Source of the DNA: an uncultured Bacteroidales bacterium
GTDB lineage: Bacteria; Bacteroidota; Bacteroidia; Bacteroidales; VadinHA17
NCBI GenBank assembly: GCA_963737255.1
Contig: CAVTSB010000003.1
Span: 1,255 to 65,254, forward strand
DNA length: 64,000 nt
Reading direction: 5' to 3'
Part shown: piece by piece, positions 25,984-64,000 of the stretch
Layout of the letters: each line of letters begins with the position of its first letter
Position numbering within the stretch: the first letter of the stretch is position 1
Made by a program: the position numbers and the translations under genes
The notes under the pieces: model-generated
What the model saw: only the letters and a program-made list of their open reading frames with translations
Databases searched by the model: none
What the model was told of the DNA's origin: nothing

Positions 25984-26057
25984 TGATTCCGGCGCGATTC
26001 GAACGCGCGACCCACAGCTTAGAAGGCTGTTGCTCTATCCAGCTGAGCTACGGAACC
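25984..26057 (-). tRNA. tRNA-Arg (anticodon TCT)
   Basis: The 74-nt cloverleaf reads GGTTCCG TA GCTC AGCTGGATA GAGC A ACAGC CTTCTAA GCTGT GGGTC GCGCG TTCGAAT CGCGC CGGAATC A. No CCA is encoded. Confidence 0.95.
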
Positions 26058-35337: not shown

Positions 35338-36758
35338 ATGAAAAAAACATTATTTTTCGTGATCCTCATTGCCGCATCGCTGGTTTTAACAGTCAGATAA
35401 AAAAGGGTTATGAAATTGCCGTTAGTATCTCAGGTCTTCAGGATTCAACAATTTATCTTGCTTATCATCTTGGCGACAAGCAATATATCAAGGATACCAT
35501 TAAACTTGACAAAAAAGGATATGGAATCTTCAGAGGCCCTGAAAGCCTGCCGCAGGGTATTTATATGGTAGTGCTCCCGGGCAGGCAATACTTCGAAATA
35601 CTGATGCCGGATGATCAGTTCTTTTCAGCATCATGCTCATTTCCTGATTATTTTAATACATTGAAGTTTTCCGGATCAGATGAAAATACTTCCTTTGTTG
35701 CTTACCAGAAGAAATGGGTCGAAATGCAGAAGAAGGCTTCGGCTATAGTTAAAAGGCTTCAGAATAACAAACAGAATCCTGATTCCCTAAAAATCCTCTC
35801 CCAGAACCAGAAAGAGCAGGAAGAATCGATGAAATCATATCTCCGGGGTGTCATAAGCGAAAACAAGGGGAATCTTCTTTCGGTACTTGTCAGGGCAATG
35901 CTTCCTGTGGAAGCCCCGGAAATCAAAGTCCCTGCAGTAATCACGAATCCTGATTCAGTAAAGTGGATACGCACTTATCTTTATAACAAGGATCACTTCT
36001 TTGACAATATCGACCTGACTGATGAAAGGCTTCTCCGGACTCCTATTCTGCAGGCCAGGCTGAATGCCTTCTTTACAAATGTTGTAATCCAGTCGCCTGA
36101 TTCCATTAACAAGGAGATTGACAGGATAGTAAAGAAAGTAAGCAAAAACCATACTATATTTCAGTTTATTTCTGTTTATCTTTTCAATCATTTCAGGGAA
36201 AGCGAAATAATGGGACATGATGCCGTGGTTGTCAAACTTGCTGATGATATCTATCTGTCGGGGAAAGCCGACTGGGTTTCGGATGAATTCAAAGATGATC
36301 TCAAAAAACAGGTCGATCTGATTCGCCCAAACCTGATCGGGAAAAAGGCTCAGAATCTTATAATGGACTCATACAAAGGGATTTTTGTTTCACTGTATGA
36401 TGTTGAAAAGGATTTTACAATTCTCTATTTCTGGGAACCTGACTGCGGCCATTGCAAGGAGGCCACTCCAAAACTGAAAGCTTACTACGATAAGGCTAAA
36501 AATGAAGGAGTTGAAGTATTCTCAGTGTGCACAACATCTGACCGGGACAAATGGGAGAAATATATTTCAGAGAACAAACTTACATGGATCAACGGGTGGG
36601 ACCCGGAAAGAAGGACCAATTTCGGTTATTATTACAATGTCCAGAGCACTCCCATGATTTATATCCTTGACAGGAACAAAACCATTATTGCCAAGAAGAT
36701 CGGAGTGGATGATATTCAGTCATTCATCGATAATTACAGGAAATACTTCAGGAATTAA
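35338..36758 (+). CDS. TlpA-like thioredoxin-fold (redoxin) protein, one frameshift as assembled
   Basis: The signal peptide MKKTLFFVILIAASLVL from the ATG at 35338 is separated from the main ORF by a slip at the A6 run 35399-35404. The active site is WEPDCGHCKE. Confidence 0.7.
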
Positions 36759-37770
36759 CCGTATTGGTTCTGATCCAGTTTATCAGGTCATAAATATTTT
36801 CAAACTCGGCCGTATGGCCGGGGATATTACATTTCCACCCGGAATCAGGACCGGATCTCACTTCAACCGAAATATCCGATGATTTAGATTCCGAAACTGA
36901 ATATCCTGCTCTTGTTATGGCTTTCTCCGTCCAATATTTGAAATCTCCATCCCCTGACACAGTAATGAAACCCCTGGGTTTGCTTCTTAATGAAAAACTT
37001 CCATTCTGAGTGTTAAAGCTGACTTTTGATTCATCGAACAGGTTTTTGAATGATCCGCTGATCATGATATCCTCGGGAGCTCCTTCAAGCAGGCCGTCAT
37101 CGAGCATGAGCCATATCTTGTCGGCCTGGCTGACAGCCATGTAAAAATCATGGGTGGAATAGATGATCGTTTTGTTTCTCTTCCGGGCCAGATCGTGCAT
37201 AAGGTTCATCACTTCATATTTACTGCTGATGTCGAGAAATGCGGTTGGTTCATCCATAACCAGTATCACGGCATCCTGCGCAAGAACCATGGCGATCATT
37301 GCCCTCTGGCGCTCACCGTCGGAAAGCTCAGTCACCGGCCTGTCGATGAATTCACTCATTCCCGTTTTCATAATAGCATCCATAACTGCCTTGTGGCTGG
37401 CTGTGTCAATCCGGCCAAACCAGTCGGTATGCGGAAAGCGTCCGAGGGCGACCAGGTCATAGACTCTCAGGTTACTGACCTTTACTATTTCTGTTGAAAT
37501 ATATCCGACCTTTCCTGACAACTGCATCCTTGAGTATTCATGAATATTCCTGCCATCAATTCTGACCATTCCGCCCAGCAACGGACGAAGGCCGGCTATT
37601 GTACCCAGAAGAGTGCTTTTCCCAATTCCGTTTTTACCTATAACAGCAATCAGTTCGCCTGCAGAGGCTGAAGCATTCAACGGAGGAAGAAGGACTTTCC
37701 TGAATTTCCCGGATTCATACCCGATCTGAAGCGATGAAAAAGATACTATTTCCTTCCTTTTGTCTTTCAT
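36748..37770 (-). CDS. ABC transporter ATP-binding protein (iron-siderophore/B12 type) with C-terminal extension
   Basis: Walker A is GKNGIGKST, the signature is LSDGERQR and Walker B is ILVMDEPTAFLD. Confidence 0.85.
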   Translation of the reverse strand: MKDKRKEIVSFSSLQIGYESGKFRKVLLPPLNASASAGELIAVIGKNGIGKSTLLGTIAGLRPLLGGMVRIDGRNIHEYSRMQLSGKVGYISTEIVKVSNLRVYDLVALGRFPHTDWFGRIDTASHKAVMDAIMKTGMSEFIDRPVTELSDGERQRAMIAMVLAQDAVILVMDEPTAFLDISSKYEVMNLMHDLARKRNKTIIYSTHDFYMAVSQADKIWLMLDDGLLEGAPEDIMISGSFKNLFDESKVSFNTQNGSFSLRSKPRGFITVSGDGDFKYWTEKAITRAGYSVSESKSSDISVEVRSGPDSGWKCNIPGHTAEFENIYDLINWIRTNTVNS

Positions 37771-38836
37771 CAGAAAATATCTGAATACCTGCGGTTTCTA
37801 AGAATGACCCAGATCACAACGGGTATGCCTATCAGGGCTGTAATCGAATTAACAGGCAACACATTATCCGACCACGGCATCTGGGAAATGATGTCACTGA
37901 CAAGCATAATGATCCCGCCTAACAGAATGGTGCCGGGTATCAGTATCTTATGATCAGATGTTCTGAATACTATTCTTGCCAGATGAGGAACTGCAATTCC
38001 GATAAATCCTATCGGTCCGCAAAAGGCCGTTACGGTGCCTGCAAGTATGCTGGTTCCGGTGATCACGATGAAACGGGCAACTTTTACGTTCAGACCGATA
38101 CTCCCGGCGTAATTTTCACCAAGGAGCATTGCGTTCAGCATCTTTACCGATGCCAGGCACAGAATGAGACCGGCAGCCACTGACACCACCATAACATTCA
38201 TTTGTGAGGAGGTCAGGTTGCCAAGGCTGCCCATTGTCCAGATAATATATGACTTCAGCATGGTCTCGTTGCTGAAATACTGCATTATGCTGACGATTGC
38301 AGAAATTCCGCTCGACAGCATAATTCCCAATATCAGGATTGTCATAATGTTTCTGACCCGGGCAGAAATGACCATTATGAGGATCATTACAGAGCCTGCT
38401 CCCACCCAGGCGGCAGCTGCAATAGCCCAGTTCCCGGTAACGCTGACAGCATCGGGTGTCAGATTTGAAGAAAAGCCCAGTATCACAAATGCAACTCCCA
38501 GGCTTGCTCCCGAACTGAGACCAAGGACATAGGGACCTGCCATGGGATTCCTGAATAGAGTTTGCATCTGCAATCCACTTATTGACAGTGCAATACCAAC
38601 TGCCATTGCAGTAATTGCCTTTGGCAGCCTGAACTTTGTAATAATGATATCCGCCATTCCGCCTGAATCGGAAAAAAGCGCTTTAAATACCTCCGAGGTC
38701 TTAACATTACCGAACCAAGCAAAAGATCGAGCAGGAAGAAAAAGATAACCAGCACCATCAAAATCGTAAAGATCAGCTTATAGTTTCTTCCCGGTATATG
38801 AAACTCGATTGCCGGTATGCGTTCGCCTGGTTTCAA
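37770..38836 (-). CDS. FecCD/BtuC family ABC permease, one frameshift as assembled
   Basis: ORFs 38579..38836 and 37770..38657 overlap in different frames. The protein has multiple TM helices and a typical FecCD C-terminus (ALIGIPVVIWVILRN). Confidence 0.8.
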
Positions 38837-38845
38837 GAAACTGGA

Positions 38846-40027
38846 TCAGTTAAGTTTTTTATAAAAGATTAATTCATCTCCCGGAAAAAGTTCAGGATGA
38901 AGGATTGTTGCAATATCTTTTAAAACTATATCAGGATTGATACATCCTCCTTCCCAGTAATCATTTCCGCCATCCGGTTTTCTCCGCTTCGTATTATTAT
39001 AGAGGTTACCCTTTTTGAAACTTTGCAGGTCGGCCAGGCGGGGGTCAATGGAAATGATCTGCGTTTTTGAATCAGCCGTTCCGATGTTAAGCCAGTAATC
39101 GGCATTCAGTGCCTTCATATAAACATTTTCAAGTGCGGTGGGCAGTGAGACTGACGATTCGGTTGTTTGCCAGAGGTAATTTCCCCCGGCATCATTGATC
39201 AGCCGGCTTATATATGAGTTCCCGGGCGATATATACCATGTGTCCTTGAACGGCAGGCCAAGCAGGACATCCGGTCGTTCACCGGCCTTTTCACTCATTA
39301 AATTCCTCAGATCAATGTATTTCTTTTCAGTTTCCCTGAAAATTGAATCGGCCAGGTGCTCCTTGCAGTACAGTGCTCCCAAAAGCTTTATCCATTCAGC
39401 CTTTCCCAGAGGATCGTTTTCAAGATAATCGGCATTGAAAACCACCTTTATCCCAAGTTCTTTCAGCTTTCCGATATAACCTGCCGATTCACTTCCTATG
39501 CCATAGACCATTACCAGATCAGGATCCAGCTTTATGATCAGTTCCTTATTCAGATTATCGTCATACCCTATTTCCCTGATCTCCCCATCCTCAACCAACT
39601 CTCTGAGATCATCCCCATAGATGAACCCTGTTCCTGAAAATCCGGTTACAGATCCTGCTTCATCCAGCGCTGAGATCATTGCAAGATGAGTTGTCGACAT
39701 GCAGATGATATTTCTTACCGGAACCCTTATCACCTCTGATTTGTCAGTTCCTGCCGGAAGATCTTTCCCCTCCTTTACGAGATACCATTTCTGTACAACA
39801 TTGCTTGCACCCTGCCAGGGATTGAATACCGAGACCTGCGAATACCCATGCAATTTTTCTATTTTTAGTCTCTTCGCATACGATATAATGGGCACTTGAG
39901 GAATTTCATGAATATTCCTGACAGTTTTGTTTTTACATGTGCAGGAAAATGGCAAAACTATGATAAACAGAAGGCAGATCTTTAAAAACCTGACAAGAAA
40001 ATCAGTTATTTTCCCGGTAAAAATCAT
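38846..40027 (-). CDS. ABC transporter periplasmic substrate-binding protein (BtuF-like)
   Basis: Its position in the operon fits, and it shows class III binding-protein features (DPDLVMVYG). Confidence 0.7.
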   Translation of the reverse strand: MIFTGKITDFLVRFLKICLLFIIVLPFSCTCKNKTVRNIHEIPQVPIISYAKRLKIEKLHGYSQVSVFNPWQGASNVVQKWYLVKEGKDLPAGTDKSEVIRVPVRNIICMSTTHLAMISALDEAGSVTGFSGTGFIYGDDLRELVEDGEIREIGYDDNLNKELIIKLDPDLVMVYGIGSESAGYIGKLKELGIKVVFNADYLENDPLGKAEWIKLLGALYCKEHLADSIFRETEKKYIDLRNLMSEKAGERPDVLLGLPFKDTWYISPGNSYISRLINDAGGNYLWQTTESSVSLPTALENVYMKALNADYWLNIGTADSKTQIISIDPRLADLQSFKKGNLYNNTKRRKPDGGNDYWEGGCINPDIVLKDIATILHPELFPGDELIFYKKLN

Positions 40028-40088
40028 TCTGTATAAGGATCAGGATTGTTTTTAAAGCAGATTCCGCCCGGAATAATATCAGCCTGCA

Positions 40089-41084
40089 TCAGTGAAACCA
40101 GCCCTCCTTCGAATTGTATCTCAGAACATTTCCTTTATTCTGATAATCAGAGGCATCGGTGACGAATATATCATCATTTGCCGGATTGATTCCCAGCTTA
40201 TAGAAATTGTAGCTTGAATTCTGGATAAAAACAGATGACGGCAGGGCAGATTCATTTATGTTCATTCGTCTTATCCCATTCTGAAGATAAAAAAGTGTTT
40301 CACCTGTTCTGTTGATCTGCAGGCATGTCGGGGAATCATTAATTGAAGGGAACTGAAACCTGTTTATTATTTCAAGGCTCTGGGGATTTACTGCAATCAG
40401 CTCGGCAAAGTGCTCACGCTGCCAGCCTCCGTTGCACAGAATCCAAAGTGTGCCGTTCCGGTCGAAAACCATGCTCTCCGGCTCCATTCCCACTTCGATG
40501 GAATCGATTACCGTGTTATCGGGTGTATTGATCACGAAGACCTTATTTCCTCCGGCCCAATGGGCTACAAATGCCTTTGAATTGTAGACGGAAACAGCTT
40601 CCGAAGGATGCTTCAGGGCGATGTACCCGGAAATTGTGTTTGAAGCCAGATCAAGAATTGTTATGGAATCGGAATAGAGGCTTGTAACATAAGCCTTATC
40701 GCGGTCCAATACAGAAATATATCTTGGAGCGATAAGTCCGTTAATCGTTGCTATCGATCTGAGAAAATCCCTGTCGACCACTTCTATCTTTCCCGAGTTG
40801 TTCACAACAATATACATTCTGGTTCCGGCAATCTCGGCTGAATAAGGTACATCGCCCAGTGGACGGTGGTTGACCGAGAGAAAAGCGTGGTTGAACAATT
40901 TGACCGAGTCGTATGAAAAGAAGGAGAGCGATCCGTTTCCCGATCTGAAATTGCCTTCATTTACAATGAAAACGCCCGGGCCCGACAGGAATGATTCTTC
41001 AATATCATTAATTACAGGATCGGTAAGCTTCAGACAGGAGCTCAACGAAATGAATACAGCTGCAATGATTAAAAATTTCCGCAT
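40089..41084 (-). CDS. cell-surface beta-propeller lipoprotein (YncE/DUF5074-like; BtuG-like position next to the receptor)
   Basis: It has a lipobox (SLSSC), a repetitive beta-propeller pattern, and lies immediately downstream of the riboswitch-controlled receptor. Confidence 0.55.
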   Translation of the reverse strand: MRKFLIIAAVFISLSSCLKLTDPVINDIEESFLSGPGVFIVNEGNFRSGNGSLSFFSYDSVKLFNHAFLSVNHRPLGDVPYSAEIAGTRMYIVVNNSGKIEVVDRDFLRSIATINGLIAPRYISVLDRDKAYVTSLYSDSITILDLASNTISGYIALKHPSEAVSVYNSKAFVAHWAGGNKVFVINTPDNTVIDSIEVGMEPESMVFDRNGTLWILCNGGWQREHFAELIAVNPQSLEIINRFQFPSINDSPTCLQINRTGETLFYLQNGIRRMNINESALPSSVFIQNSSYNFYKLGINPANDDIFVTDASDYQNKGNVLRYNSKEGWFH

Positions 41085-41087
41085 AAC

Positions 41088-43004
41088 TTAACTTTTAATT
41101 TGAAAAATAACCGAAAGTAAATAAGAACGTCCCGGCATCGGATACCAGGCAATATTCTGGTAACTTACATTAAACAGATTATCAACGATAATGCTCAGTT
41201 CATATGTTGTTTTTTTTGAATTTATTCTCCCTCCGAAACTGAGGTCACTCACCGCATATCCGGGAAGATAGCTTGAGTTATCAGCAGTCAGGTATCTGCG
41301 GCTGATACAGTTGGCACCGAATGAGGTATAAAGGCTTTTCCAATTTATTCTTACGATTGAACTAAACTGATTTTCAGGTATATAAATAAGCTGCCTGTCG
41401 CCTGAGTACCCTGATGCTTCCCCTGATCTTTCAGGTGTCGCTTTCGTATGGGAATAGAGTACCGTAAGCAAAGTTTTGAAATGCGACTGCGAATAAACAA
41501 GGGATACCTGTGATTCAATTCCTGCTGTACTGATTTTGGCAACATTGTCCGCAACCCAGTAGCTATTATCTCCCGGGAGCCATTGTATCATATCTGTTAT
41601 ATAGTTCCTGAAAGCGGTCAGACTGCCATTTACATTAACCGAAGAAGAGACCGGAACTGCAATTTCCCATCCTATCTCAGCCGTATACCCGTTCTCGTTT
41701 TTAAGTTCCTGATTTCCGCCCGGAGACCAGTACATATCGTTGAGTGTCGGGACTTTTGAATTTTTTGAAAAATTTGCCCGTAGAAAATAATCCTTTTCTG
41801 AGAATGGTTTGATTTCAGTTCCGGCTGAAAAATCGGGCACGAGAAACTCTTTGTCATGAAGAGTTTCCCTTATCAGTAAACGAGTTACAAGCCACCGGGT
41901 CAGCCTTGTTTCAGACGAAATGGCGAGAGATGCAGTGTTCCTGTTACGTTTTCCTGTATAGTTATTTGAATTTATGAAGTTCAGCTCGTTGTCGAGCGAG
42001 ATCTTCAATCTGGTAGTTGGGCCGATTTCAGTCAACATCCCTGTTTTAACTATAAAGCTGCGGGCACTATTCCTTGAATCGATAGAGACAAGCCTGTTTG
42101 TATAATTAAGCTTGTCTGAGATAAAAGCGCCCGTTATGTTGAAATTGGCTTTTTTGTTAAGCGATTCATAGCTGACGAGGCTGCGCACCGACAGGTCATT
42201 CTGTTTCTCGCCGGGATTAGCTGAAAGCATGCTCAGGGGGACAGGAAGATTTCTTGAGGTTTCCTGATACCAGAATCTTGTTGAAAAGATACCTTCTGAT
42301 CCCTTAAAATAGAGCTCCTGAATAAATCCCCTCTGGCTTACCTGACTGTTTTTCCGTCTTTCAATAACAGGTTCCGTACCAGCCAGATTATTCACAAAAG
42401 GAAAGTTGTTTTCTGCAGAGTTCAAAAATCCCCTGGTTATGGATTGAAATCCCGAATTACCCGTTTTTACTTTGACCAGTCCTGAATATCTTCCGAAACT
42501 TCCCAGGCCAGGATTTATAAAAAGGACGTCTTCCTTCTTCCAGTCAGGTTTTGTTTCAAGATTTATTATTCCGCCAAAACCGCCACCGCTGATATCCATC
42601 GATCCCCCACCGTATGAGACCTCAACTGCATCGGCAAATCCTGCCGGAACCAGCGACAGGTCGAATTGTCCGAGCATAGGATTATTAATATTTATTTCGT
42701 TCCAGACTATCCTGGTATGACCCGGTCCTGTACCTCTGAAAGATGGAGTCGCAATCCCGCCTGAACCATATGATTTGACAAACAAAGATGTTCTTTTCGA
42801 AAGCAGGTCAGCAATTGTCCGGTGGGTGTATTCGCTTAAAACGGCAGAATCAAGACGGATCGACCTGAAGCCGGCTGAAGGATGTCCATTCTCTTTTGCA
42901 GAGATCAAAACCTCCCTGATCACGATCGTGTCGTTCCGGAACATATCCTGTGCCTGCAGGCTTGCAGTGAATAAAAGGGCAGTATAAAAAATGGCAGTTC
43001 TCAA
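41088..43004 (-). CDS. btuB: TonB-dependent receptor (BtuB-like)
   Basis: A signal peptide, a plug region and a long beta-barrel pattern are present. It is the first gene after the cobalamin riboswitch. Confidence 0.8.
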   Translation of the reverse strand: MRTAIFYTALLFTASLQAQDMFRNDTIVIREVLISAKENGHPSAGFRSIRLDSAVLSEYTHRTIADLLSKRTSLFVKSYGSGGIATPSFRGTGPGHTRIVWNEININNPMLGQFDLSLVPAGFADAVEVSYGGGSMDISGGGFGGIINLETKPDWKKEDVLFINPGLGSFGRYSGLVKVKTGNSGFQSITRGFLNSAENNFPFVNNLAGTEPVIERRKNSQVSQRGFIQELYFKGSEGIFSTRFWYQETSRNLPVPLSMLSANPGEKQNDLSVRSLVSYESLNKKANFNITGAFISDKLNYTNRLVSIDSRNSARSFIVKTGMLTEIGPTTRLKISLDNELNFINSNNYTGKRNRNTASLAISSETRLTRWLVTRLLIRETLHDKEFLVPDFSAGTEIKPFSEKDYFLRANFSKNSKVPTLNDMYWSPGGNQELKNENGYTAEIGWEIAVPVSSSVNVNGSLTAFRNYITDMIQWLPGDNSYWVADNVAKISTAGIESQVSLVYSQSHFKTLLTVLYSHTKATPERSGEASGYSGDRQLIYIPENQFSSIVRINWKSLYTSFGANCISRRYLTADNSSYLPGYAVSDLSFGGRINSKKTTYELSIIVDNLFNVSYQNIAWYPMPGRSYLLSVIFQIKS

Positions 43005-43089
43005 TTACACACTTCATTTTATGCTGCCGGGAAAAGTAAGATCAGGGAATCTTTGAATGATTCTGCGCTTTTCTTCCCGAAAGCATTGA

Positions 43090-43262
43090 ACTAATAGCTT
43101 GTCTGGCAGGTCTTCTGACTTGTCCCGGTTTTAAGAAGCCTTCCCATCCCTGACTATGGAACAGTGGCAGGTATTTCTTGAAACCATCGTCGTTTAAACG
43201 ACCGGGCATCACAGCAGCGGGTACTGTCGCGGATTCATACCGCATTCCCTTTTCACTACAAT
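43090..43262 (-). promoter_or_regulatory. cobalamin (B12) riboswitch
   Basis: The minus strand reads AAAAGGGAATGCGGTATGAATCCGCGACAGTACCCGCTGCTGTGA...CCTGCCACTG...GGGATGGGAAGGC...CAGAAGACCTGCC. The B12-box GCCACTG and the flanking conserved blocks are present. Confidence 0.85.
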
Positions 43263-43467
43263 GATTTTATTTCATTGTAAAACCAATACAGGGCAAAGGT
43301 AATGGAATTTCAAATAGATCTATATCGAGATATTAACAATTTATTAATCGTTAAGTTGCAGGTTGCCAGCCTTCGCTACCTCCTTCGCTAAAGCTACGGA
43401 GGTCAAAGAAAGCTACGGCTGGTAAAACTGGTTGAAGGTTGCTGGTTAATCTGCACATGCAACTTAA

Positions 43468-53225: not shown

Positions 53226-53399
53226 ATGGATCAGAAAGAAATAATAATTCTTGTTGCAGTTCTTGTTTTCGTAGCTGTTCGGTTATATCAGAAGTATGCA
53301 AAGAAGGGCAAGGGTGTAAAAGGCACCAGGGAAACCACTTCTTCAAGCTTTTCCCAGTCGGCAGGTGAGGATGATTATGAGCCTTATTCGAAAAAGTAG
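53226..53399 (+). CDS. 57-aa single-TM small protein (hypothetical; not in ORF track)
   Basis: I translated MDQKEIIILVAVLVFVAVRLYQKYAKKGKGVKGTRETTSSSFSQSAGEDDYEPYSKK myself. It has one hydrophobic helix and a charged tail. Confidence 0.3.
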   Translation: MDQKEIIILVAVLVFVAVRLYQKYAKKGKGVKGTRETTSSSFSQSAGEDDYEPYSKK

Positions 53400-53400
53400 A

Positions 53401-54690
53401 TCAGCTTCGGTTCCTCGAAATCAGGTAACGGAACGGATTAAAGATCTTCTGCAGCAGACGCAGGTCATCTGTGATTATCTCTGCGGTGCCCTGCATATTC
53501 TGGGTGAAGTCAAGCTTATTACCGTACAGTGTGGTCAGTCCCGACGGAAAATTAAGCTCTATAATATAGGTGTCGCCTGATGGAACAAGGGACTTTGATT
53601 TTACAACACCTTTTATCATGCCATATTCAAGATACGGGTAACCGCTCAGTTTGATATTGACTTCCTGTCCGGGTCTGACTTTCCCGGAGCGGTTCATCTT
53701 CAGATTTATCCTTCCGACAAAATCACCGGTAACAACCGGAACAATACTCATTACCGGCTCGTCTCTGTTAACAGTCTGGTTTTCGCTCCAGAATTTAGTA
53801 AATGTCACGACGCCGCTGAATCGTGCAACAAGCAGATAGGTGTTTTCCCACATCTTCAGCTGGGCTTTAAGGTTCAGGAAAGATTCGCTGAGCACTGAAT
53901 TGTATTTTTCCCCCTCCTCCAGCTTTTTTATCCTGTAATCCTGGAGAAGCTGCCTCTTCTCGGCAAGTTCGATTGATTTTGCCGAATGATCGAGGCGTAC
54001 CTGCTGGAGTTCGATATTAATCCTGATAAGCGACTGGCGCGATTTTTCAAGTTCACTTTCGGAAAATACCCCGCTTTCGTGAAGCAATGAATCCCGACGG
54101 TACTTTCTGGCTTCCAGCGTCTGGTTCTCCGCATATAATTTCTCCTTTACCTTTACCCTGCCTATGTAGGCAAGTATGCCGTCTATTTCGTCGGTAATGG
54201 AGTTGGCCTTATTGCCGTAGAAATCATTGATGTTGTAATTATTGTAATCTGAGAGAGCTTTCCGGAAGGTACCCCAGAATCCCTGAATTTCTCCCAGTTC
54301 AGTAAATTCAGGCAGATCAGGTGGCAGGAGCGAACCCGGATTTTTTAGAGTGTCAATGAAGGACCGTAGTTTTTCAATTTCACTGACTGATGCTGCAGTC
54401 TCCATGACGGCCAATAATTTACCCTCATTTACAATTTCCTTGTCCTTCACATAAAGGTTCTGAATCTGACCCGTAACTTTGGATAAAAGGGTAACAGGTG
54501 GATTGACTGTTGTAATTTCCACAGGAGCAGGTATGGTATCGGGATATTTTATCAGCCACGCAAAAAATATAAGCACTGCAAAAACAAGAAGTATTATTGT
54601 ATTGCCACATCTTACAATCTTTGCCGGGGTATGCCCCATTATTTCATTTACCGGTTCAGAGTAGATTATATCGCTTTTCTTTTCATCCAT
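53401..54690 (-). CDS. HlyD family secretion (membrane fusion) protein
   Basis: It has an N-terminal TM segment, a long coiled coil and a beta-barrel C-terminus. It lies immediately downstream of the peptidase-ABC exporter. Confidence 0.8.
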   Translation of the reverse strand: MDEKKSDIIYSEPVNEIMGHTPAKIVRCGNTIILLVFAVLIFFAWLIKYPDTIPAPVEITTVNPPVTLLSKVTGQIQNLYVKDKEIVNEGKLLAVMETAASVSEIEKLRSFIDTLKNPGSLLPPDLPEFTELGEIQGFWGTFRKALSDYNNYNINDFYGNKANSITDEIDGILAYIGRVKVKEKLYAENQTLEARKYRRDSLLHESGVFSESELEKSRQSLIRINIELQQVRLDHSAKSIELAEKRQLLQDYRIKKLEEGEKYNSVLSESFLNLKAQLKMWENTYLLVARFSGVVTFTKFWSENQTVNRDEPVMSIVPVVTGDFVGRINLKMNRSGKVRPGQEVNIKLSGYPYLEYGMIKGVVKSKSLVPSGDTYIIELNFPSGLTTLYGNKLDFTQNMQGTAEIITDDLRLLQKIFNPFRYLISRNRS

Positions 54691-54698
54691 ACTCAGGT

Positions 54699-56887
54699 TC
54701 AGTTTCCAAGTTCAAGCTGGTTTTTTACAAGATTATAATAAGCTCCGCGCTTTTCAATAAGATTTTCATGTGTTCCTGTCTCGGTGATCTGCCCGTCATC
54801 AAGAACGACAATCTTATCGGCATTGCTTACTGTACTTAGCCTGTGAGCGACAATTATCACTGTTTTCCCCCTGAAAAAATCTCTCAGGTTTTCAACTATT
54901 GCCTTTTCAGTATTGGCATCGAGTGAATTTGTTGCCTCATCAAACATAAGAATATCAGGATCTTTATAAACGACCCGGGCGATCAGTAACCGTTGTTTCT
55001 GTCCTTCGCTGAGTCCATGGCCGTCGGACCCAATTTTCGTATTGTAACCAAGGGGCAGGGATTCAATAAATTCCCTGATATTTGCCGTGCCTGCAGCTTT
55101 TTTAAGCTTTTCTTCATCGAGTTCGCGTATTCCAGGTGCAATATTTCCGGCAATCGTATCAGGAAATAAAAATCCATCCTGCATTACTGCCCCTGCTTTC
55201 TCCCGCCACAATTTCAGGCTGATATTTGGAAGGGGGATATCCCCTATCGTGATTTCTCCTGTTACTGGCTGATAAAATCCCAGAAGCATCTTAAGCAGCG
55301 TTGTCTTTCCGCTTCCGCTCACACCTACAATTGCAGTTATTTTATCCTGTTCAATAACAAGATCAGTATTTTTTAATGCAAATGGGGAACGCGGCCCTTC
55401 ATACTGATAAGAAAGATTAGTCAATCTGATATTTTTATTTTCAGGAAGCCTGGCTACCTTGTTCTCAGAATCAGTCTCTTCATCATCCATATTATGAACC
55501 TCAGCCAGCCTGTCGAGGCTCATCCTGGCATCCTGTGACAGTTCTGAAGAATCCTATGATCTGGTTGACCGGGACATTAAGCTGACCGATTATGAACTGA
55601 ACGGCAAGCATCATACCCAGGGTCATGTTTCCCTTAAGAACTGCGGTGGCAGCAACAATTGTAATCAGTATGTTCATTATTTCGTTTATCAGGGTGGCTC
55701 CGGCCGACTGGTACTGGATTAGCCCGAGTCCTTTGACTTTCAGCCCGAAAAGTGAAGCCTGATGCGTTTCCCAGTCCCACCGCTTGCTTAATTCGCTCTG
55801 CGTAAGCTTTATCTCCTGCATACCGTTTATTATGTTTATAAGCTTTGAATTGGAGGCTGACATCTCTTTAAACCTCTGGGTATCGAGCTTCGCCCTTGAG
55901 TTCATGAAAAGCGACACCCACAGCAGATACAGAAGGGTGCCTGCAAGGAAGATCAGAAATATCTTAAGACTGAATATTGCCAGTACAATACCGAATACTA
56001 TCAGGTTAAAGAATGAAAACAATATGCTGAGGCTTGCCGATGTAAGAAATTCCTCAATCCTGTTGTTGTCATCGATGCGCTGAAATATGTCGCCTGTCAG
56101 CCTTGTATCAAAAAATGCAATCGGAAGGGCCATAAGCTTCTGAAGGAATCCGGAAATTATTGCCACGTTTACACTTGATCCGATATGAAGAAGCAGCCAA
56201 CCGCGCATGAATTCGACTGACATTCTTCCAATAACCAGGGCGAGCTGGGCAAAAAGAATCAGGTAAATAAATCCTATGTCATTATTATTCAGTCCAATAT
56301 CGATTATTGACTGGGTAAGGAAAGGTACGATAAGCTGAATCAGACTCCCGATAAGGAGGCCAAGAATAAGCTGTCCGAGATACTTTTGATACAGTTTGAA
56401 ATACTTCAGAAGGAATCTGAAACCTTTTGATTTTTGATGTTCATCTTCAATATTGTAAAGAGCCGGTGTAGGTTCTATTATCAGTGCGAGCCCCGTTTGC
56501 TTTCCTTCGGTTGCCGAACTGATCCATTTTTTTTCAAATTCTTCACGTGAATATCTGACGAGCCCGGTTGCCGGATCGGCAACCCATACTTTTTCCCTGC
56601 TGATCTTGTAAACAACAACAAAATGCTTCTGGCCCCAGTGCACAATACACGGGAGGGTCATTTTTTCCGCAAGCATTTCAAACGGGATCTTTACCCCAAG
56701 TGTCCTGAATCCCAAAGAATCAGCTGCCTCGGAAAGTCCCAGAAACGAAACACCGCTTTTTGTTATGAAGCATCTTTTTCTCAAGGTAATCGAGTGAAAA
56801 GTTCTTTTTGTAAAACGCTGCTACCATTTTCAGGCAGGCAGGACCGCAATCCATCGCATCATATTGTTTTACAAACGGAAATAACAT
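54699..56887 (-). pseudogene. peptidase C39 domain-containing ABC transporter (PCAT), at least 2 frameshifts as assembled
   Basis: The N-terminus MLFPFVKQYDAMDCGPACLKMVAAFY, from the ATG at 56887, carries the C39 catalytic Cys. The TM domain is ORF 55501..56784. The NBD is ORF 54699..55523 (GVSGSGKTT, LSEGQKQR, ILMFDEATNSLD). Slips lie near 56783 and about 55530. Confidence 0.85.
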
Positions 56888-57020
56888 TTTCTACGATCTT
56901 GTCGTTTAAATACGAAAGTAAAGATATTTATTATTTAGTAAAAAATACTTCATTAATTCGGGCATCCGAACTGACAGATCAACACTTTTAACCGGGGAAA
57001 TACTATATTTGTCAACAATT

Positions 57021-57600
57021 ATGCAGAAATAATCAGCGATTGTTCCGCAAAATTTCAGATAGTAGCAATAATTGAAGGCATTCGCCAGCAGGACGACGAA
57101 ATACTTAACTGGCTTTATGATAATTATCGTGAGACGGTCAGGCACCATATACTCAAGAACAGTGGCTCCGAAGCTGATGTCTCTGATGTATTCCAGGAAT
57201 CAATTATAACCCTCTACAATCAGATATCGGGAAATGAACTTAAGCTGACAACTGATCTTAAGGGTTACTTTTTTGGTATCGCGAGGAATATCTGGAGCGC
57301 CACTCTGCGGAAAAAGCTGAGAAATACTGAAATTGATCCTGACTTTCCTGATGACGGTGGCAGTGATGAAGCCGGGAGTGAAATTCTTGAAAGAATTGTG
57401 AGCAGGGCATTCCGAAACTTAAGCCTGATTCCCAGACTATTCTTACTCTGTTTTCGGAAGGCAATTCATATGAGGAAATAGCGCTGAAAATGAATCTCAA
57501 GAATGAAGACCTAGCAAGGAGAAAGAAGTATCTGAGCAAAGAAACCCTCATGGAACTTATCAAAGAGGATCCTGAATATAAGGATTATCTGAATTTATAA
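57021..57600 (+). pseudogene. sigma-70 family (ECF-like) RNA polymerase sigma factor, frameshifted
   Basis: The region-2-like part is DVFQESIITLY...GYFFGIARNIW. The region-4-like part SQTILTLFSEGNSYEEIALKMNL lies in another frame after about 57420. The ATG at 57021 is also out of frame. Confidence 0.65.
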
Positions 57601-57749
57601 TAATAGAGGAATAAGAACCAATCCGAGCAATATTGCTGCAGCACCTGCCAGAATATCAGATCTTTCTTGAATAATAAAGGGATTCATTGTTCCCGTAAAT
57701 AACCAGCGCAGACCAGAAATAAGGATGTGACCGCAGCATATCGGCTTTC

Positions 57750-60689
57750 TTAAGATAATTCATGCCTTGCTTTTCTGAGTGCATCACTTTTTGTTTCTCC
57801 CTTTTTGAGATATTTGTAAAAATTCTTTACAATTTCGGTACCTGACCTGTCCTCAATCTCCCACATTGACATAACAACTGACTGACTTCCGGAATATATA
57901 AATCCCCTTGCCAGGCTCAGTATACCCTCACCTGAATTCAACTTTCCCGATACCAGTGTTGCACGAACTGAGTATTACCATTTTGGCCTTAAGCGGTATA
58001 TCATATACCTCATAAGTATTCAGGTTGCCGTCCTCAACAGAGTCCGTCGGCCTGGTAAAACAGCATTTTGGAATGCATCGGATACTGATCATTCAGGACA
58101 GTATGCATCGCAAGGTGAATAATATCATAATTATGTGCTTCCGCCTTAAACCTCATTTCCGTAGCGCCGTCATTTATACACAGAGTTCCTTCCGTAAGTT
58201 CTGAAACATATTCAGCTTCCTGGCGGGCAAACGGCAGATCATTGATACCTGACAACCTGACCTGCCTGGTCTGAAGCACTGAATCGATGTTGATCGTCCT
58301 GGTATAAACCGGGGCAAATGCTATAAGACTGTTTGACATGCTGACAGTCATTTTTTTCACTGACTCTGCCAGCAGTGTTGCAGAATAAGTATACGAGATC
58401 CTGAATTCATTCATCATATAGGGGAGTTCCCTGTAAAGGATATCATCCCCTTTGAATTCCTGATAAGGAATCGTCTCAAAAGGGATATATGAAAGAATAT
58501 TATCGGGAGAAATTAATAACTTGTCTGATATCAGGTACTTTCGCACGGGTTCCAGAATTTTCCTGTAAATCCGGCCACCGTAAAGTTGATATTTCATGAA
58601 TTCTGACTTTGCATCCATGAAAGGTGAAGGCAATGAGAGAAGCTTTCTGAATTCCCTTACATTATCAAAAAAACCGGAATCAACAGGCATGGTAAAAAGT
58701 TTGGTGAATTTCCTGTTAGCCAGAAAAATATAGATAACAGTATCAGATACCACGTAATTCAAATAGTTCGTGTTTCTGCCGGCAACGGAAGGAATATCAC
58801 CGGGCTTTACGACTTCTGTGTTATATTTCAATAAGTAATAACCGGGATACTGCTTCTCGAATAGTTTCACAAGCGAATCACGTCCCTGCGCAGCATTAAA
58901 GACATTACCCTTCCATTCTGCTATAAGCTGGGCGTCAGGTGATTTTTTATTGTTTTCCTCCGAAATTTTGGCGTTATAGAAACTGATCTCTGTTTTGAGC
59001 TTTCGCTCAAGCTCTGCAACCTCAGCGGGAATATGGAACTGAGTTGCCTTAAGTTCACGGGTTGATGCGAGCAGTCCAGCTACTTTGCTCTTTTCAGCGT
59101 ATTCAAATGCCTTCTCCAAGGTATTCCTCACGCCCGGTATGCCTGTAACATAAATCAAAATCCCTGATTGCTTCAACGTAGGCATCCCTGTAACGGTCTC
59201 CCAGTACGAGCCTGCTTTCCTCTTCGGTGATATTGATCCTTACCTTTTCCAATAACGCAACAATTATTTCAGACGTGCCGGAAGCTGCGATCAGATAACC
59301 GTAATTATCAGATTTTCTGAAAATATCCCATAGGATCCGGTATTTTGCGTTCAATAAATCGATCGACCATCTGTCGGGCTCAATCAACGCAATATCAGGA
59401 TTTTCAACGCCGGTATACCCCGGATTGTCCGGAACAGAGGTGAAGAGTAATTCCTGTATCCTCCTGAGAGCCTTTGCCGAATCTCCGTTCTCATTCAGCG
59501 TCAGGGCATACCCGAGAATAACCTGGTTTCTCAATGACAGATCTTCCTTATGATCATTGAGATAACCGATACACAGTTCATAAAAAAGAAGCGATTTTTT
59601 GATGTCCTTCCTGAATGTTCTCAGGTATTCTGCATAGTTTTTCAGCACCTCAAAATAATCTTTCGAATTCTCTCCATACGATTTTTTAGCTTTTTCAAGA
59701 GAATTCAGGATAAGCTCCTCGCCCTGATCAATCCTTCCTGCGTTAGCAAGCACAACAGCAAAACTGTTTACAAAGTTAAACGACAATATTGAATTTGATG
59801 ATTTTGTCATTTCAAACCCACGCTTAAAATACTCATCGGCCTTGTCGTTCAGCCCAAGGAAGAAATATGTGGCCGCCAGACTATTGAGCAGATTAATATA
59901 ATTTGCATCCTTCGGAAGGAAGTTTTCTTCATAAATCAATTCCGCCTTCTCAAGGTAAAGAGCAGCCCTGGAATAGTCGGACAAGCTTATATAGCATATC
60001 CCGATATTGGAGTAGATCGTTGCCCGATCCTGACTGTAATTATCATTTCCCCCGTTTATCAGTTTCAAAGCTTCATTTCCGAAACTGATTGCCCTGGTAT
60101 ATTCGTAAAGTCCGAAATTTGCCGTGATAAGATTCGACAGACCCTTTAACAACACAGGGCTTGATTCACCATGGAGCTTTTTATCTATTTCAAGCGACAT
60201 GAGGGTATATTCCTCCATCCTCTTGAAATCACCGAAATTGTTATACACTACTCCCAGGTTAAAAAGACATTTTGCATGAATTTCATCATCGCATTTCAGG
60301 CGTTCCCGTATGGATGAAGAAAGAGAGAACCAGACTGCAGCTTCCTTGTTTTTACCTGTTATCAGATTATACACACCAATGTAATAATAGGAATCGGAAA
60401 AAATCAGATTATCATTTTTTTGTCCACTTAGATTTTTTATGATGGAATTTACGACGATTCCTGACCTGACGGTATCGCCTGAAGTCATATAAGCCTGAAA
60501 TTCATTATTCAACCTTTCGAGCGCACGGTTTAAAGAATCATCCTGGAGTCCGGTGCCTGATTCCTGGTAATTATTAACCAGCGACCTTGTGAAATCAGGT
60601 TCCTCCGTATCTGAAGCAGTTGCACAGGCTATCCCTGAAATGCAAAGGAAGATTAGTTTAAACCACCATATATGATTCTTATAAATCAT
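57750..60689 (-). pseudogene. TPR-repeat plus CHAT (caspase-like) domain protein, at least 3 frameshifts as assembled
   Basis: The pieces are 59103..60689 (signal and TPRs), 58034..59185 (ending HLAMHTVLND) and 57750..57941. The catalytic-Cys context VILSSCNTG is readable between the pieces, in another frame. Confidence 0.75.
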
Positions 60690-60926
60690 CTGGTACTTGC
60701 TGATATTTATGAAAATCCCCGCTTAAAGATCACAAGTATAATTGAAAATGCCAAAATTTATCTCAATCTATCAATTTTTTTTCATCAGTAAGTTACTGAT
60801 TTTCTTGACATAAGTTTTTTTATGAAAAAAAGTTGACTTTTTTTGGTCACAAAACCATAGTTTCCGACATGTAACAATAGAATTGCGAATTACCCTGACT
60901 AAGTATCAACGACTAAAATTAAAAAG

Positions 60927-61064
60927 ATGAAAAACCTGAATTTTGAAAAAACCGAAGAGATTTTTGATGAGTACACCCTTACTCCGGAAGAAATGATTTG
61001 TATTAAAGGTGGTGATGCCGGCGATCCGATTGTAAAACCAATGCCTCCGGTTGTCAGAATTTGA
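60927..61064 (+). CDS. double-glycine leader peptide precursor (GG-Bacteroidales type), 45 aa, not in ORF track
   Basis: I translated MKNLNFEKTEEIFDEYTLTPEEMICIKGG / DAGDPIVKPMPPVVRI myself. The leader ending LTPEEMxxIKGG is the pattern cleaved by C39 exporters. A weak hairpin plus a T-rich tract follows at about 61079-61107. Confidence 0.65.
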   Translation: MKNLNFEKTEEIFDEYTLTPEEMICIKGGDAGDPIVKPMPPVVRI

Positions 61065-61310
61065 AAAAGGAATAATCCTCCCGCCTTGGCGAAGGCAGGA
61101 ATTTTATAACATTATTGGCTGTGTTTTGTAGTTGAGTTTTCAGCTATCGATGCCGGAAGATATGTATTACGATCGGTGTCGGATGGCATGCGAAGGAAGC
61201 AGGTCGCATTTAAGTCCTGCGCGAATGATATTCTGAATTATAGATTTAATGGATATATGAATATCTGTATAATTAAGTATGGAAATAAATATTAAACAAA
61301 ACATAAAATT

Positions 61311-62055
61311 ATGAAAACAATTGATTTTTCATATTTCATCGAAAGGTACATAGCCGGAGAGATGGATGAAGCCGAGAAACAGTGGTTCAGAAATGAAATG
61401 GACGGAAACGAAAAGCTTCGAAAAGAAGTGGAGATCAGACGGAAAACGGAAGCAATCCTGAAAAATCAGGATCTTCTGAATCTCAGAATTAAGCTGGACT
61501 CCATAGAAAAGAAAAGAGCTGTTGAAGTTAGCGTCAGGAGGCAGACAAAGCATACAACAGTTAAGTATGCCGCAATATTTGCCGGTCTGATTATTATCGG
61601 CGGGATTGCACTGTTCTCGAATAAAGGTCCTGATTCAGGCGAAATTTTTGAGAAGTATTACACACCATACGAGGCAACGACAACACTCAGGTCCGACGTT
61701 GTAATGGATAATTCTGATTTTAACCTGGCCCTTGAGTATTATGAAATACATGACTACAGGAATGCTGCCATATACTTCTCCAGAGCTCTTGAGAACACAC
61801 CGGGGGACATGCATTCAGCTCTGCTGAACGGGATTTCGAATTTTGAAATCAGCAATTATCCTGAAGCCGAAGAGTTCATTATCAAAAGTGATCGATGACA
61901 ATAAAAACCTGTATATCGATCACGCTCAGTGGTACCTGGCTCTATGCTACATAAAAACTGACGAAAATCAAAAAGCAGCTGAACAGCTGGCCATAATTGA
62001 AAAATCAAAAAGCATTTACAGGAAGGATGCCAGGAAAATTCTAAGAAGCCTGTAG
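61311..62055 (+). CDS. anti-sigma-like single-TM protein with periplasmic TPR region, one frameshift as assembled
   Basis: The N-terminus FIERYIAGEMDEAEKQWFRNEM is typical of anti-sigma N-termini. The TM segment is YAAIFAGLIIIGGIALF. TPR-like repeats continue in ORF 61843..62055. Confidence 0.55.
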
Positions 62056-62074
62056 CAATATTAATAACAAGCAA

Positions 62075-62911
62075 ATGTTTAATCTTTCGGGAAATAATAA
62101 GGGAGAATCGGTTAAACCGGATACAACCGGTCAGACCAGTGAAAAGGTCCTGCAATCGTTGAATCAGAATTTAATTAATTGTCCTGCAGTATTGTCCGGA
62201 ATGTCCCGCGAAATGCGGACTCAAATGAACTCAATTGTTGCATTTGCATATCTTCTTAATAAAAAGGAATATACAGACGAGGAGAGGGATGAATTCAGCC
62301 TTCAGATCTATAACTCATGCGAACAGATGATATTGTCTTTTTGACAATTTTCTTGATTCAGCAGTCATTGATACGGGTAATTCAAAAACTGAAGCAGGAA
62401 TTTGCAATCCAGACGAAACATTTAGTGATCTTTTTACGGAATTCAGGGAAGATATTGAGAAAGGATAAATACAAGGACATTATCCTTGTGTCCGAAAACC
62501 AGCCGCTTAAGAATGCGTGAGTACCTGGTTGATACTAACAGGGTGACAAGGGTAATTCGCAATTTGTTCCAGAATGCCCTCAGCAATACAAAATCAGGTT
62601 ACATTAAGGTCGGTTATTATGTCAGGAATGGTGACTGACATTCTATATCCTTGATTCCGGCGAGGGATACTTCAGGTGCCGGGAATTTCTTCAGACGCAG
62701 GATCTGGCCGAATCCCTTTCAAAGTTCAATGATACATATTCAGCCATGAATCTGATCCTTACAAGGAATCTTATTAAAATGATGAATGGATCGGTATGGA
62801 TTGAATGCAACGGATTAACAGGATCCGGTATTTACTTTTCAATTCCGGTTTCAACTTCAGATGTTGAATCTTTGCCCAAAGAATATACGAACAGTATGAT
62901 TGCTATCTGAT
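62075..62911 (+). pseudogene. soluble sensor histidine kinase (no TM), several frameshifts
   Basis: The H-box context is SREMRTQMNSIVAFAYLL. The N-box VIRNLFQNALSNT and the G-boxes (ILDSGEGY, GSGIYFSIPV) are readable only by switching frames. Confidence 0.65.
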
Positions 62912-62992
62912 ACCAGATGTCTCTTTTCTTAATGTCTGAATGCCCCCAAAGCATGCGCCAGAAAATAGTTGTCCACCCGGGCAGCTATTTTT

Positions 62993-64000
62993 TTACTTTT
63001 TCATTTCCAGGATCTGGACTTCAGTTCTTCTGTTGAGCCTTCTCCCCTCTGATGTAACATTGTTCCCTATGGGCGACGCATTTCCATAACCTTTATATTT
63101 CAGCCGTTCAGCCGATACTCCGTTTTCGGTAAGAAAATTGACTACAGACAGCGCCCTTTTTTCAGAAAGGACAAGATTGTGTTCATTATTTCCGGTGGCA
63201 TCAGTGTATCCTCCAATCTCAACTATCAGCTGATTGTTGCCGCTCAGAAGATCTGAAAGCTTGTTCAGTTCCGACAGAGATTCCTTTCTTAAGTTCCCAG
63301 GAATCCGTTTCGTAGAAAATGTTGGCGAGGAGCATCTTTTCACCAACCTTCAATGGACTCAGCTTTATCTTCATCAGGTACGGTTTGAGGACAGAGTGCT
63401 GTCCTTCAAACATAAAATTTTCCGAATAAAACAAATAACCTGCCTTGCTGACATTCAGTGCATAATTAAATCCTGAAGGCAGGCAGACCAGGAAATTCCC
63501 GTTTCTGTCGGTAGTATTCTTCAGGACTGGTTTCCCGGTGGAAAGATTGATCAGTTCAAAGTCGGAAATAAGCATTTTCCCGTTCTCCCTGTCCGTTACC
63601 TTACCTTTAAAATATGCAACAGGGTCAGGTCTGTACCGATTCAGGGAGGTTAAAAGAGTAAATGTTTTTTCCGGTTTCGTTATCTCTTTTTGAAGAAAAA
63701 TAAGCTTTCTGGCCGCCAGATTCAATCACCAGCCCCATTTCATCATTAAATGTATTTATAGGATAACCAAGGTTCAATGGTTCAGTCCAGGTAGTATCAT
63801 CAAGCATACGGGTCATGTAGATATCGAATCCTCCCATTCCCGGCAATCCGTTTGAAGAAAAATAAAGTGTCTTACCGTCAAAATGAATGAATGGCGACAT
63901 TTCATCACCTTCAGTATTTATTTTCTCTCCCAGGTTTACAGGTTCCTTCCATTTGCCTTTTTGATCTGAAACTGAATACCAGAGATCCTTTCCTCCTATC
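62993..64000 (-). pseudogene. OmpA-family protein with PD40/TolB-like repeats and carboxypeptidase-regulatory-like domain, frameshifted, 5' end off window
   Basis: The C-terminus reads IVEIGGYTDATGNNEHNLVLSEKRALSV...NRRTEVQIL. Upstream pieces 63219..63725 and 63625..63900 lie in other frames. Confidence 0.7.

Follow-up and report, generated by a model that had tools for sequence, protein, structure and literature searches.

What does an uncultured Bacteroidales bacterium do with a peptide of only 16 residues, and is such a peptide made at all? The question is raised by a 45-aa open reading frame (ORF) at 60927–61064 on the plus strand of the 64,000-nt stretch of contig CAVTSB010000003.1 analysed here over its full length (the window), which encodes a double-glycine (GG) leader and a short proline-rich core. 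We find that the ORF is a genuine gene, as judged from its substitution pattern and distribution, and that its product is, on the evidence of gene neighbourhoods, the single dedicated cargo of a conserved seven-gene cassette. The reading that we prefer, tentatively and with a little less than even confidence, is that the peptide acts as an unmodified exported ligand for the periplasmic tetratricopeptide repeat (TPR) proteins of the cassette, which would control a sigma factor of the extracytoplasmic function (ECF) group, and that its role would be regulatory and not toxic. The precursor consists of two parts:

60927–61013, plus strand: leader of 29 aa, MKNLNFEKTEEIFDEYTLTPEEMICIKGG, with cleavage predicted after G28-G29

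61014–61064, plus strand: core of 16 aa, DAGDPIVKPMPPVVRI, plus the stop codon; the predicted mature peptide

Translation of 60927–61064 yields MKNLNFEKTEEIFDEYTLTPEEMICIKGG followed directly by DAGDPIVKPMPPVVRI and a stop codon (MKNLNFEKTEEIFDEYTLTPEEMICIKGGDAGDPIVKPMPPVVRI in joined form), exactly as the original prediction had read it. We compared 15 orthologues and found that differences accumulate at the third codon position (1962 versus 892 and 800 at the other two) and that the ratio of non-synonymous to synonymous differences (pN/pS) is 0.33, with leader and core alike (about 0.33–0.34 for the core). The peptide frame is the sole frame open in 15 of 15 orthologues and stays open in ones that are only ~50% identical. 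Homologues were recovered by (i) a protein search (3), (ii) DNA-level scans (13 loci in GTDB species genomes, all of them Bacteroidales, Bacteroidota or 'Rikenellaceae' metagenome-assembled genomes, and 42 loci on metagenome contigs), (iii) a profile search of protein databases with the peptide (120 clusters at 90% identity) and (iv) an exhaustive search with a profile hidden Markov model (HMM; 108 representatives at 50% identity). The database copies are unnamed or called 'hypothetical protein', and some members were never called as genes. Because of the third-position excess, the pN/pS of 0.33, the exclusive open frame and the more than 100 homologue clusters, we read 60927–61064 as a genuine conserved gene in uncultured Bacteroidales. 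An ORF this short, lacking a match in any curated family (scans of the window peptide against NCBIfam and Pfam returned nothing at E ≤ 1) and preceded by a 5′ region conserved to the same degree as the ORF itself, could also be a chance frame or a piece of a non-coding RNA that is never translated. We consider this very unlikely in view of the codon-position pattern, the pN/pS and the exclusive open frame in all orthologues, the conserved positions of start and stop codon, and an Rfam scan of the locus that gave no match.

The leader identifies the class of exporter. Substrates of ATP-binding cassette (ABC) transporters that contain a peptidase (PCATs) carry N-terminal leaders 15–30 aa long, the last two residues being GG (or GA/GS); positions −4, −7 and −12 are hydrophobic and position −8 is acidic. 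The window peptide shows L(−12), T(−11), E(−9), E(−8), M(−7), I, C, I(−4), K, G(−2) and G(−1), matching the consensus LSxxELxxIxGG, and its sequence is therefore that of a double-glycine PCAT substrate by definition. Among the 15 orthologues L18, E21, E22, M23, I24, C25, K27, G28 and G29 are invariant, and the positions of the resulting signature, L-x-x-E-E-M-I-C-x-K-G-G, are invariant or nearly so both in this set and in 93 homologues. In all six frames of the window the GG-leader pattern fits this ORF and no other (mean 0.03 over 100 shuffles). A scan of the window and 75 sequences turned up no sibling precursors; each locus carries exactly one.

In the core, only the first two to three residues past the cleavage site vary among close relatives, and the C-terminal dodecamer is almost invariant. 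The family consensus is [DE]-x-G-[DE]-P-I-[LIV]-K-P-x-x-P-P-[VI]-[KR]-I-COOH, and ~86% of the 92 distinct cores end in PP[VI][KR]I; the window core is a slight variant that ends PPVVRI. Counted from the C-terminus, a Lys at −9 and a Lys or Arg at −2 are conserved. Core length is 15–18 aa, and exactly 16 aa in 62 of 92; the unmodified 16-mer of the window has a predicted monoisotopic mass of 1702.944 Da. Distant members retain the leader, and their core is still short and rich in proline and ends in a hydrophobic stretch such as PPVTTDPEI, PPIIIIIGD or PPVIVIPEEG. The core had been described as cysteine-free, which holds for the window and fails for the family as a whole, 6 of the 92 distinct cores containing Cys.

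The exporter is encoded 4.04 kb from the peptide, on the other strand and next to its adaptor:

54699–56887, minus strand: PCAT with C39 peptidase, ABC membrane domain and ABC ATPase (Pfam and NCBIfam matches)

53401–54690, minus strand: intact HlyD-family membrane-fusion adaptor of 429 aa, anchored in the membrane by its N-terminus (TIGR01843, E = 9.3e-20; PF13437)

Both the C39 exporter with its DCGPACL motif and the HlyD partner had been located about 4 kb away by the original prediction, and both are there. In the window the PCAT is split into three ORFs (56887–56720, 56784–55501 and 55523–54699) by two single-base insertions or deletions (indels), at 55539 and 56787 relative to locus L016, a 96.6%-identical Joint Genome Institute (JGI) metagenome contig. 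Compared with L016, the PCAT has a pN/pS of 0.12 and no in-frame stops once the indels are removed. The intact orthologue in L005, the reference locus of the main lineage, is 728 aa long and matches PF03412 (E = 3.5e-37) and TIGR01193 (E = 2.8e-125). The catalytic Cys lies in the context QYDAMDCGPACL (DCGPACL) and the downstream His is present; a co-encoded exporter whose C39 domain looks catalytically competent is what accompanies PCAT substrates. HlyD adjoins the PCAT in every locus, the rearranged one described below included. Given the known biochemistry of PCATs and the conserved gene linkage, it is likely that the precursor is cut after Gly29 and that the PCAT and HlyD export the core.

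Is this linkage more than shared ancestry? In intact relatives the cassette has the order HlyD (−), PCAT (−), ECF sigma factor (+), TPR-CHAT protein (−), peptide (+), membrane TPR protein (+), kinase-like protein (+), and the order is identical in 65 main-lineage loci wherever the contig spans it, with the kinase-like gene absent from five (L006, L034, L035, L057 and L060). Where contigs extend far enough, these loci occupy the same chromosomal position between housekeeping genes. A homologue search with the membrane TPR protein returned, in the best 120 of 772 matches, members of the same lineage throughout; the contexts outside the lineage, L066 and L072, came from the profile search with the peptide. 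Locus L066 keeps all seven genes on a different left flank, in which Nramp and 5-oxoprolinase genes replace DUF349 and the small membrane protein gene sm59. In L072, whose proteins are 26–58% identical to their L005 orthologues, exporter and adaptor are encoded at the opposite end of the cassette, downstream of the kinase-like gene. The proposal that a GG precursor is coupled to the neighbouring exporter is thus supported by a consensus leader and by clustering that survives one rearrangement and one change of flank. The sm59 gene (53226–53399, plus strand) encodes 57 aa with a single helix and an acidic DDYEPY tail, has no family match and lies, in conserved form, between the DUF349 and HlyD genes of main-lineage loci; because it is missing from L066, it probably is not part of the cassette. 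A PADLOC scan did not assign the cassette to a known defence system.

The gene content bears on whether the core is modified. Neither the window nor any arrangement of the cassette contains a radical-SAM gene or another maturase, and the original prediction had noted none near the peptide; in relatives, the nearest radical-SAM gene is small, lies beyond the PorE-like gene and thus outside the cassette, and is QueE-like. [quoted passage not shown] Its leader resembles those of Bacteroidota RiPPs: TIGR04149 (GG_sam_targ_CFB) comes from the same phylum and shares the leader style MK.LN...L...EM..[IV].GG, and 2 of 15 relatives match this model, the better at E = 0.01 and far below its threshold. 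The conserved Asp/Glu and Lys could in principle form lactam links, and six cores contain Cys. We consider such a precursor quite unlikely, since the window peptide matches no model, most cores lack Cys, Ser/Thr clusters and aromatic residues, the cassette core is without the residues that such radical-SAM enzymes cross-link, and no modifying enzyme accompanies it. The earlier assignment to the TIGR04149 'GG-Bacteroidales' precursors is not supported, the model threshold not being reached and no radical-SAM/SPASM maturase being adjacent.

Could the exported peptide be a toxin? Mature class II bacteriocins and microcins are considerably longer than 16 aa and are cationic, amphiphilic or Gly-rich; microcins and bacteroidetocins typically come with immunity genes and often sit on mobile or variable loci. 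The net side-chain charge of the 92 distinct cores is 0 or −1; they contain ~26% Pro and are neither amphipathic nor hydrophobic. A core this short, this rich in proline and so insufficiently cationic is unlike a class II bacteriocin, in line with the earlier view that the short, Pro-rich peptide does not look like a typical bacteriocin. Immunity-type genes are lacking from the conserved cassette, the only small membrane protein nearby being sm59, which L066 does not retain. The peptide gene is also single-copy, at a fixed chromosomal site in the main lineage and under purifying selection, the opposite of the usual patchy, multi-copy and diversifying bacteriocin pattern. A small unmodified antimicrobial peptide whose neighbours only regulate its production, either class II bacteriocin- or microcin-like or a proline-rich peptide of the apidaecin type with an intracellular target, is for these reasons an unlikely explanation, even though it bears a loose resemblance to apidaecin-type peptides in its size, its proline content and the R/K-I at its C-terminus. 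The export route speaks for it: a GG leader with a PCAT and a membrane-fusion protein is the standard route of microcins and bacteroidetocins, which are toxins considerably longer than 16 aa (PMC6671954, PMC12219008). The cassette shares with these systems (ColV-CvaAB-TolC) the GG-leader peptide and the Gram-negative PCAT with its membrane-fusion protein, and differs from them in its non-cationic 16-aa core, its fixed site and the missing immunity gene.

The remaining four genes of the cassette point towards regulation:

57040–57600, plus strand: ECF-type sigma-70 factor, ~186 aa (three-frame translation matches L005)

57595–60689, minus strand: TPR-CHAT protein, ~1030 aa (~1005–1030 aa in intact relatives; PF13424, TPR_12; PF12770), fragmented by indels in the window

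61311–62055, plus strand: single-pass membrane TPR protein, ~248 aa, with a frameshift near 61872 in the window

62075–62910, plus strand: soluble histidine-kinase-like protein (HisKA and HATPase_c), ~278 aa, frameshifted in the window

In the window, indels shift the frame of the ECF gene near codon 10 and near 57414; the L005 orthologue matches TIGR02937 (E = 2.8e-16) and contains Sigma70_r2 (PF04542) and r4_2 (PF08281). No in-frame ATG is available in any orthologue examined. The likely start is a TTG at 57040, ~30 nt past a canonical Bacteroidetes −7 box, TATATTTG (57004–57011), and both TTGTT and this sigmaA −7 box are conserved in 17 loci. The ECF and TPR-CHAT genes are adjacent and convergent, and their 3′ ends meet or slightly overlap in all loci.

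The CHAT domain of the TPR-CHAT protein (PF12770, E = 1.1e-53 in the L005 orthologue) retains its His/Cys dyad, with HLAMH at 58117–58103 and SSCNTG at 57969–57952, and the gene has a pN/pS of 0.13 relative to L016. Hydrophobic segments occur at residues 1–20 (an N-terminal signal or anchor) and 976–1003 (a C-terminal membrane helix). From its signal-like start and the membrane helix at its C-terminus, most of the protein is predicted to lie in the periplasm, and with an intact dyad it is predicted to be an active caspase-like protease. Searches of the TPR-CHAT protein against Protein Data Bank (PDB) sequences gave generic TPR matches only. The intact dyad, and the position of the peptide gene, which adjoins the TPR-CHAT gene divergently in all loci, also fit a cell-autonomous envelope checkpoint, in which the peptide would not be a ligand and would instead serve the protease as substrate, decoy or inhibitor, or report on the activity of the exporter. 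The conserved Lys at −9 and Lys/Arg at −2 would then be possible caspase- or metacaspase-type sites. The former precedes a Pro, Lys-Pro bonds being poor targets for most proteases, and nothing in the sequence separates such a checkpoint from a ligand; we regard it as unlikely.

The membrane TPR protein is predicted to have a highly conserved 80-aa helical N-domain in the cytoplasm (N-in), one membrane helix and a periplasmic domain of three TPR-like repeats. An AlphaFold2 model of mediocre confidence (pLDDT 65.7) folds the N-domain into three helices. Foldseek and HMM comparisons with the PDB found generic three-TPR proteins only (Hop TPR2A, Sec72, CHIP and YbgF; E ≥ 0.1), and a weak match to the NCBIfam model NF052375 'antisigma' (E = 0.027) is the sole direct hint at an anti-sigma function. 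The protein may be an anti-sigma factor or a sensor. In the kinase-like protein, no hydrophobic or membrane segment is present. Its H-box reads SREMRT in the window, with Arg in place of the phospho-acceptor His; this replacement occurs in 29 of 38 distinct orthologues, and the 9 that keep His are divergent. Its ATP-binding boxes are retained and its C-terminal tail ..[IL]-[AT]-I is conserved.

The peptide gene itself is bracketed by two conserved elements:

60846–60871, plus strand: upstream element GTCACAAA-N11-YGACATG, a candidate operator or alternative-sigma promoter

61078–61101, plus strand: stem-loop CCCGCCTT-GGCG-AAGGCAGG followed by AAUUUUAU, directly after the stop codon

The upstream element lies ~55 nt before the ATG in the window and ~60–70 nt before it in most relatives, occurs once per locus (1 match in the window versus 0 expected) and keeps the same 26-nt spacing in all but one of 54 distinct loci. 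Divergent relatives show it as a clean inverted repeat, TGTCAC-N12-GTGACA, with a T-run before it. Inspection of the upstream alignment by eye revealed no Bacteroidetes sigmaA −7 box (TAnnTTTG) in front of the peptide gene, and we found no second copy of the element near the sigma, exporter or protease genes. The stem-loop has a folding energy of −12.7 kcal/mol (z = −1.9). Its stem persists across 24 loci, where 90% of cells are paired versus 39–63% for slid controls and covariation is limited; it is likely a terminator or attenuator of a small transcription unit. Just past the hairpin, at 61105–61125, many of the 24 aligned loci share a conserved AATGACATT motif, in front of the membrane TPR gene. 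The upstream element's GACAT half-site recurs in it, and the regulator of that element may bind here a second time.

How might these parts work together? The 45-aa precursor would be made from its own small transcription unit, between the conserved upstream element and the downstream hairpin; the C39 domain of the neighbouring exporter would cut after Gly28-Gly29, as PCAT biochemistry leads one to expect; and the PCAT and HlyD, presumably with a TolC-like channel encoded elsewhere, would move the 16-mer DAGDPIVKPMPPVVRI out of the cytoplasm. Because the cassette has no maturase, the exported peptide would stay linear and unmodified. Taken together, we are fairly confident of this first half of the mechanism. 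In the second half, the conserved C-terminal dodecamer with its free P-P-[VI]-[KR]-I carboxylate would be bound by a periplasm-facing TPR module, the candidate readers being the TPR-CHAT protease and the single-pass membrane TPR protein. Binding would switch the pair of protease and membrane protein that controls the ECF sigma factor, and the sigma factor, or another regulator acting at the TGTCAC...GACA element, would change transcription, possibly of the peptide gene itself. We put forward this half as possible, at somewhat less than even confidence.

Several known systems resemble the cassette in part. DegS, a PDZ-domain serine protease, reads the C-termini of misfolded porins and cleaves RseA in the sigmaE pathway. 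The proposed logic is similar to that of DegS and RseA, hypothetically and at the level of mechanism, in that a free C-terminus would be read by the peptide-binding module of a periplasmic protease, which would then cut a single-pass membrane anti-sigma factor; it differs in that a cysteine protease would do the reading through a TPR module, and that what is read would be a peptide exported as a dedicated ligand. It likewise resembles the TPR-CHAT (autoproteolysis) step proposed for DdvA/DdvS. The cleavage of Csx30 is reportedly linked to an RpoE-type sigma factor. In Myxococcus xanthus, a periplasmic TPR-CHAT module of DdvA is proposed to gate release of the ECF sigma factor DdvS in response to a signal that is unknown (PMC11506125), ECF54 sigma factors have CHAT proteins as conserved neighbours (PMC8999054), and the TPR-CHAT protein Csx29 cleaves Csx30 in the type III-E Craspase (PMC10028731). 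In all three, a caspase-like TPR-CHAT protease is genetically coupled both with an ECF-type sigma factor and with a partner that is membrane-bound or inhibitory, and the cassette shows the same pairing of ECF and TPR-CHAT, an ECF54/DdvS-like module; with DdvA it also shares the predicted periplasmic location. The fused architecture of DdvA is not found here: in DdvA, anti-sigma domain, membrane helix and TPR-CHAT form one protein with an incomplete dyad, whereas the cassette has two proteins and an intact dyad. None of the three systems has a co-encoded secreted peptide and exporter.

Peptides as exported signals have precedents as well. The CHAT protease HetF, namesake of the domain, acts in the same developmental pathway as the PCAT HetC. 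HetC, which functions in Nostoc heterocyst differentiation, is thought to export a regulatory peptide, with its substrate unknown (PMC10986499). Both HetC and the exporter of the cassette would be Gram-negative PCATs that export a regulatory peptide and not a toxin; no GG peptide is encoded near hetC, whereas the substrate is evident in the cassette. The Gram-positive GG pheromone systems ComC/CSP-ComAB-ComDE and BlpC-BlpAB-BlpHR (reviewed in PMC7595303) resemble the cassette in their GG leader for a C39 ABC exporter, in their short linear unmodified peptide (predicted for the cassette) and in the embedding of the precursor gene among dedicated export and regulatory genes. In contrast to them, the cassette is Gram-negative with HlyD and has neither a membrane histidine kinase nor a response regulator, no gene with a receiver domain being present. 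Its regulators are instead an ECF sigma factor, two TPR proteins (the periplasmic TPR-CHAT protease and the one in the membrane) and a kinase-like protein that is soluble and in many cases without the His, and its core is proline-rich, with a conserved free C-terminus and no pherotype-like diversification. The suggestion in the original prediction that the peptide is a signal rather than a bacteriocin is strengthened by the ECF, TPR-CHAT, membrane TPR and kinase-like neighbours; the wiring of classical pheromone systems is absent. Limited literature searches found no description of the peptide family, or of a cassette that joins a GG peptide and PCAT to an ECF sigma factor and a TPR-CHAT protein.

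Several observations weigh against a regulatory ligand read by TPR proteins. Because the main-lineage loci share their housekeeping flanks, their common gene order is weak evidence, so that independent evidence of linkage comes mainly from L066 and L072. Mirror-tree comparisons of leader with C39 and of core with TPR domains correlate throughout via shared phylogeny, and no partner of the core stands out; with phylogeny controlled, partial Mantel tests of the core against partner domains gave r of 0.03–0.21 (p ≥ 0.054). The upstream element was not found in L072. It is partly palindromic, and its TGTCACA-n13-YGAC spacing is below that of typical ECF promoters, so that it may bind another, dimeric regulator and not the sigma factor of the cassette. 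The anti-sigma label of the membrane TPR protein, a candidate assignment, derives from topology, neighbourhood and one weak match only, and fold and profile searches of the PDB matched it to no solved anti-sigma domain. The kinase-like protein is not membrane-bound, its catalytic His is often missing, and some loci do without the gene altogether. Finally, most cassette genes are frameshifted in the window, HlyD being intact.

The frameshifts deserve a closer look. Aligned with L016, positions 55539–63632 of the window contain 22 single-base indels, of which 19 are extra bases in the window, and they break the PCAT, ECF sigma, TPR-CHAT, membrane TPR, kinase-like and PorE-like genes. L016 contains the ECF sigma, TPR-CHAT, peptide, membrane TPR, kinase-like and PorE-like genes in full and intact. 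The indels are confined to the last 9 kb of the window, and the genes at 47–55 kb are intact. With the indels removed, pN/pS is 0.12–0.15 and there are no in-frame stops. We considered pseudogenisation of the window cassette and rejected it on these grounds; from the purifying pN/pS, the absence of in-frame stops and the intact genes of L016, the frameshifts are probably consensus or assembly errors and not gene decay.

Further upstream, the neighbouring 25 kb of the window contain B12 uptake genes, YidC, CTP synthase and DUF349. A cobalamin riboswitch (RF00174, 93.8 bits; 43088–43303, minus strand) lies upstream of the B12-uptake genes at 36748–43004, which encode a TonB-dependent receptor, a DUF5074 protein and BtuF/C/D-like uptake proteins. 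There is a single tRNA gene (RF00005, 67.5 bits; 25984–26057, minus strand).

If the peptide is indeed a ligand for the TPR proteins of the cassette, it would represent the missing class of activating ligand for TPR-CHAT-gated sigma factors and a clear case of a GG peptide that serves as a signal in a Gram-negative bacterium. Whether PCAT-exported GG peptides of Gram-negative bacteria are signals and not toxins has been asked for about two decades, and according to a 2024 paper evidence in either direction is still lacking (PMC10986499). At its furthest, and at present doubtful, the cassette might be an undescribed kind of cell–cell or autocrine peptide signalling, the first in Bacteroidota, in which the C-terminus of the 16-mer would engage a TPR module, the CHAT protease would cleave the membrane TPR protein as the anti-sigma factor, and the ECF sigma factor would be released. 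The cassette unites a synthesizable candidate ligand, exporter, TPR-CHAT protein, membrane TPR protein and ECF sigma factor in one compact unit, a gene set conserved across lineages with proteins sharing only 26–58% identity; both the question of signal or toxin and that of the signal for TPR-CHAT proteins are therefore directly testable with a synthetic peptide and three recombinant domains. For the Bacteroidales of sediments, wetlands and anaerobic digesters, the finding adds an unannotated small-protein family of more than 100 clusters.

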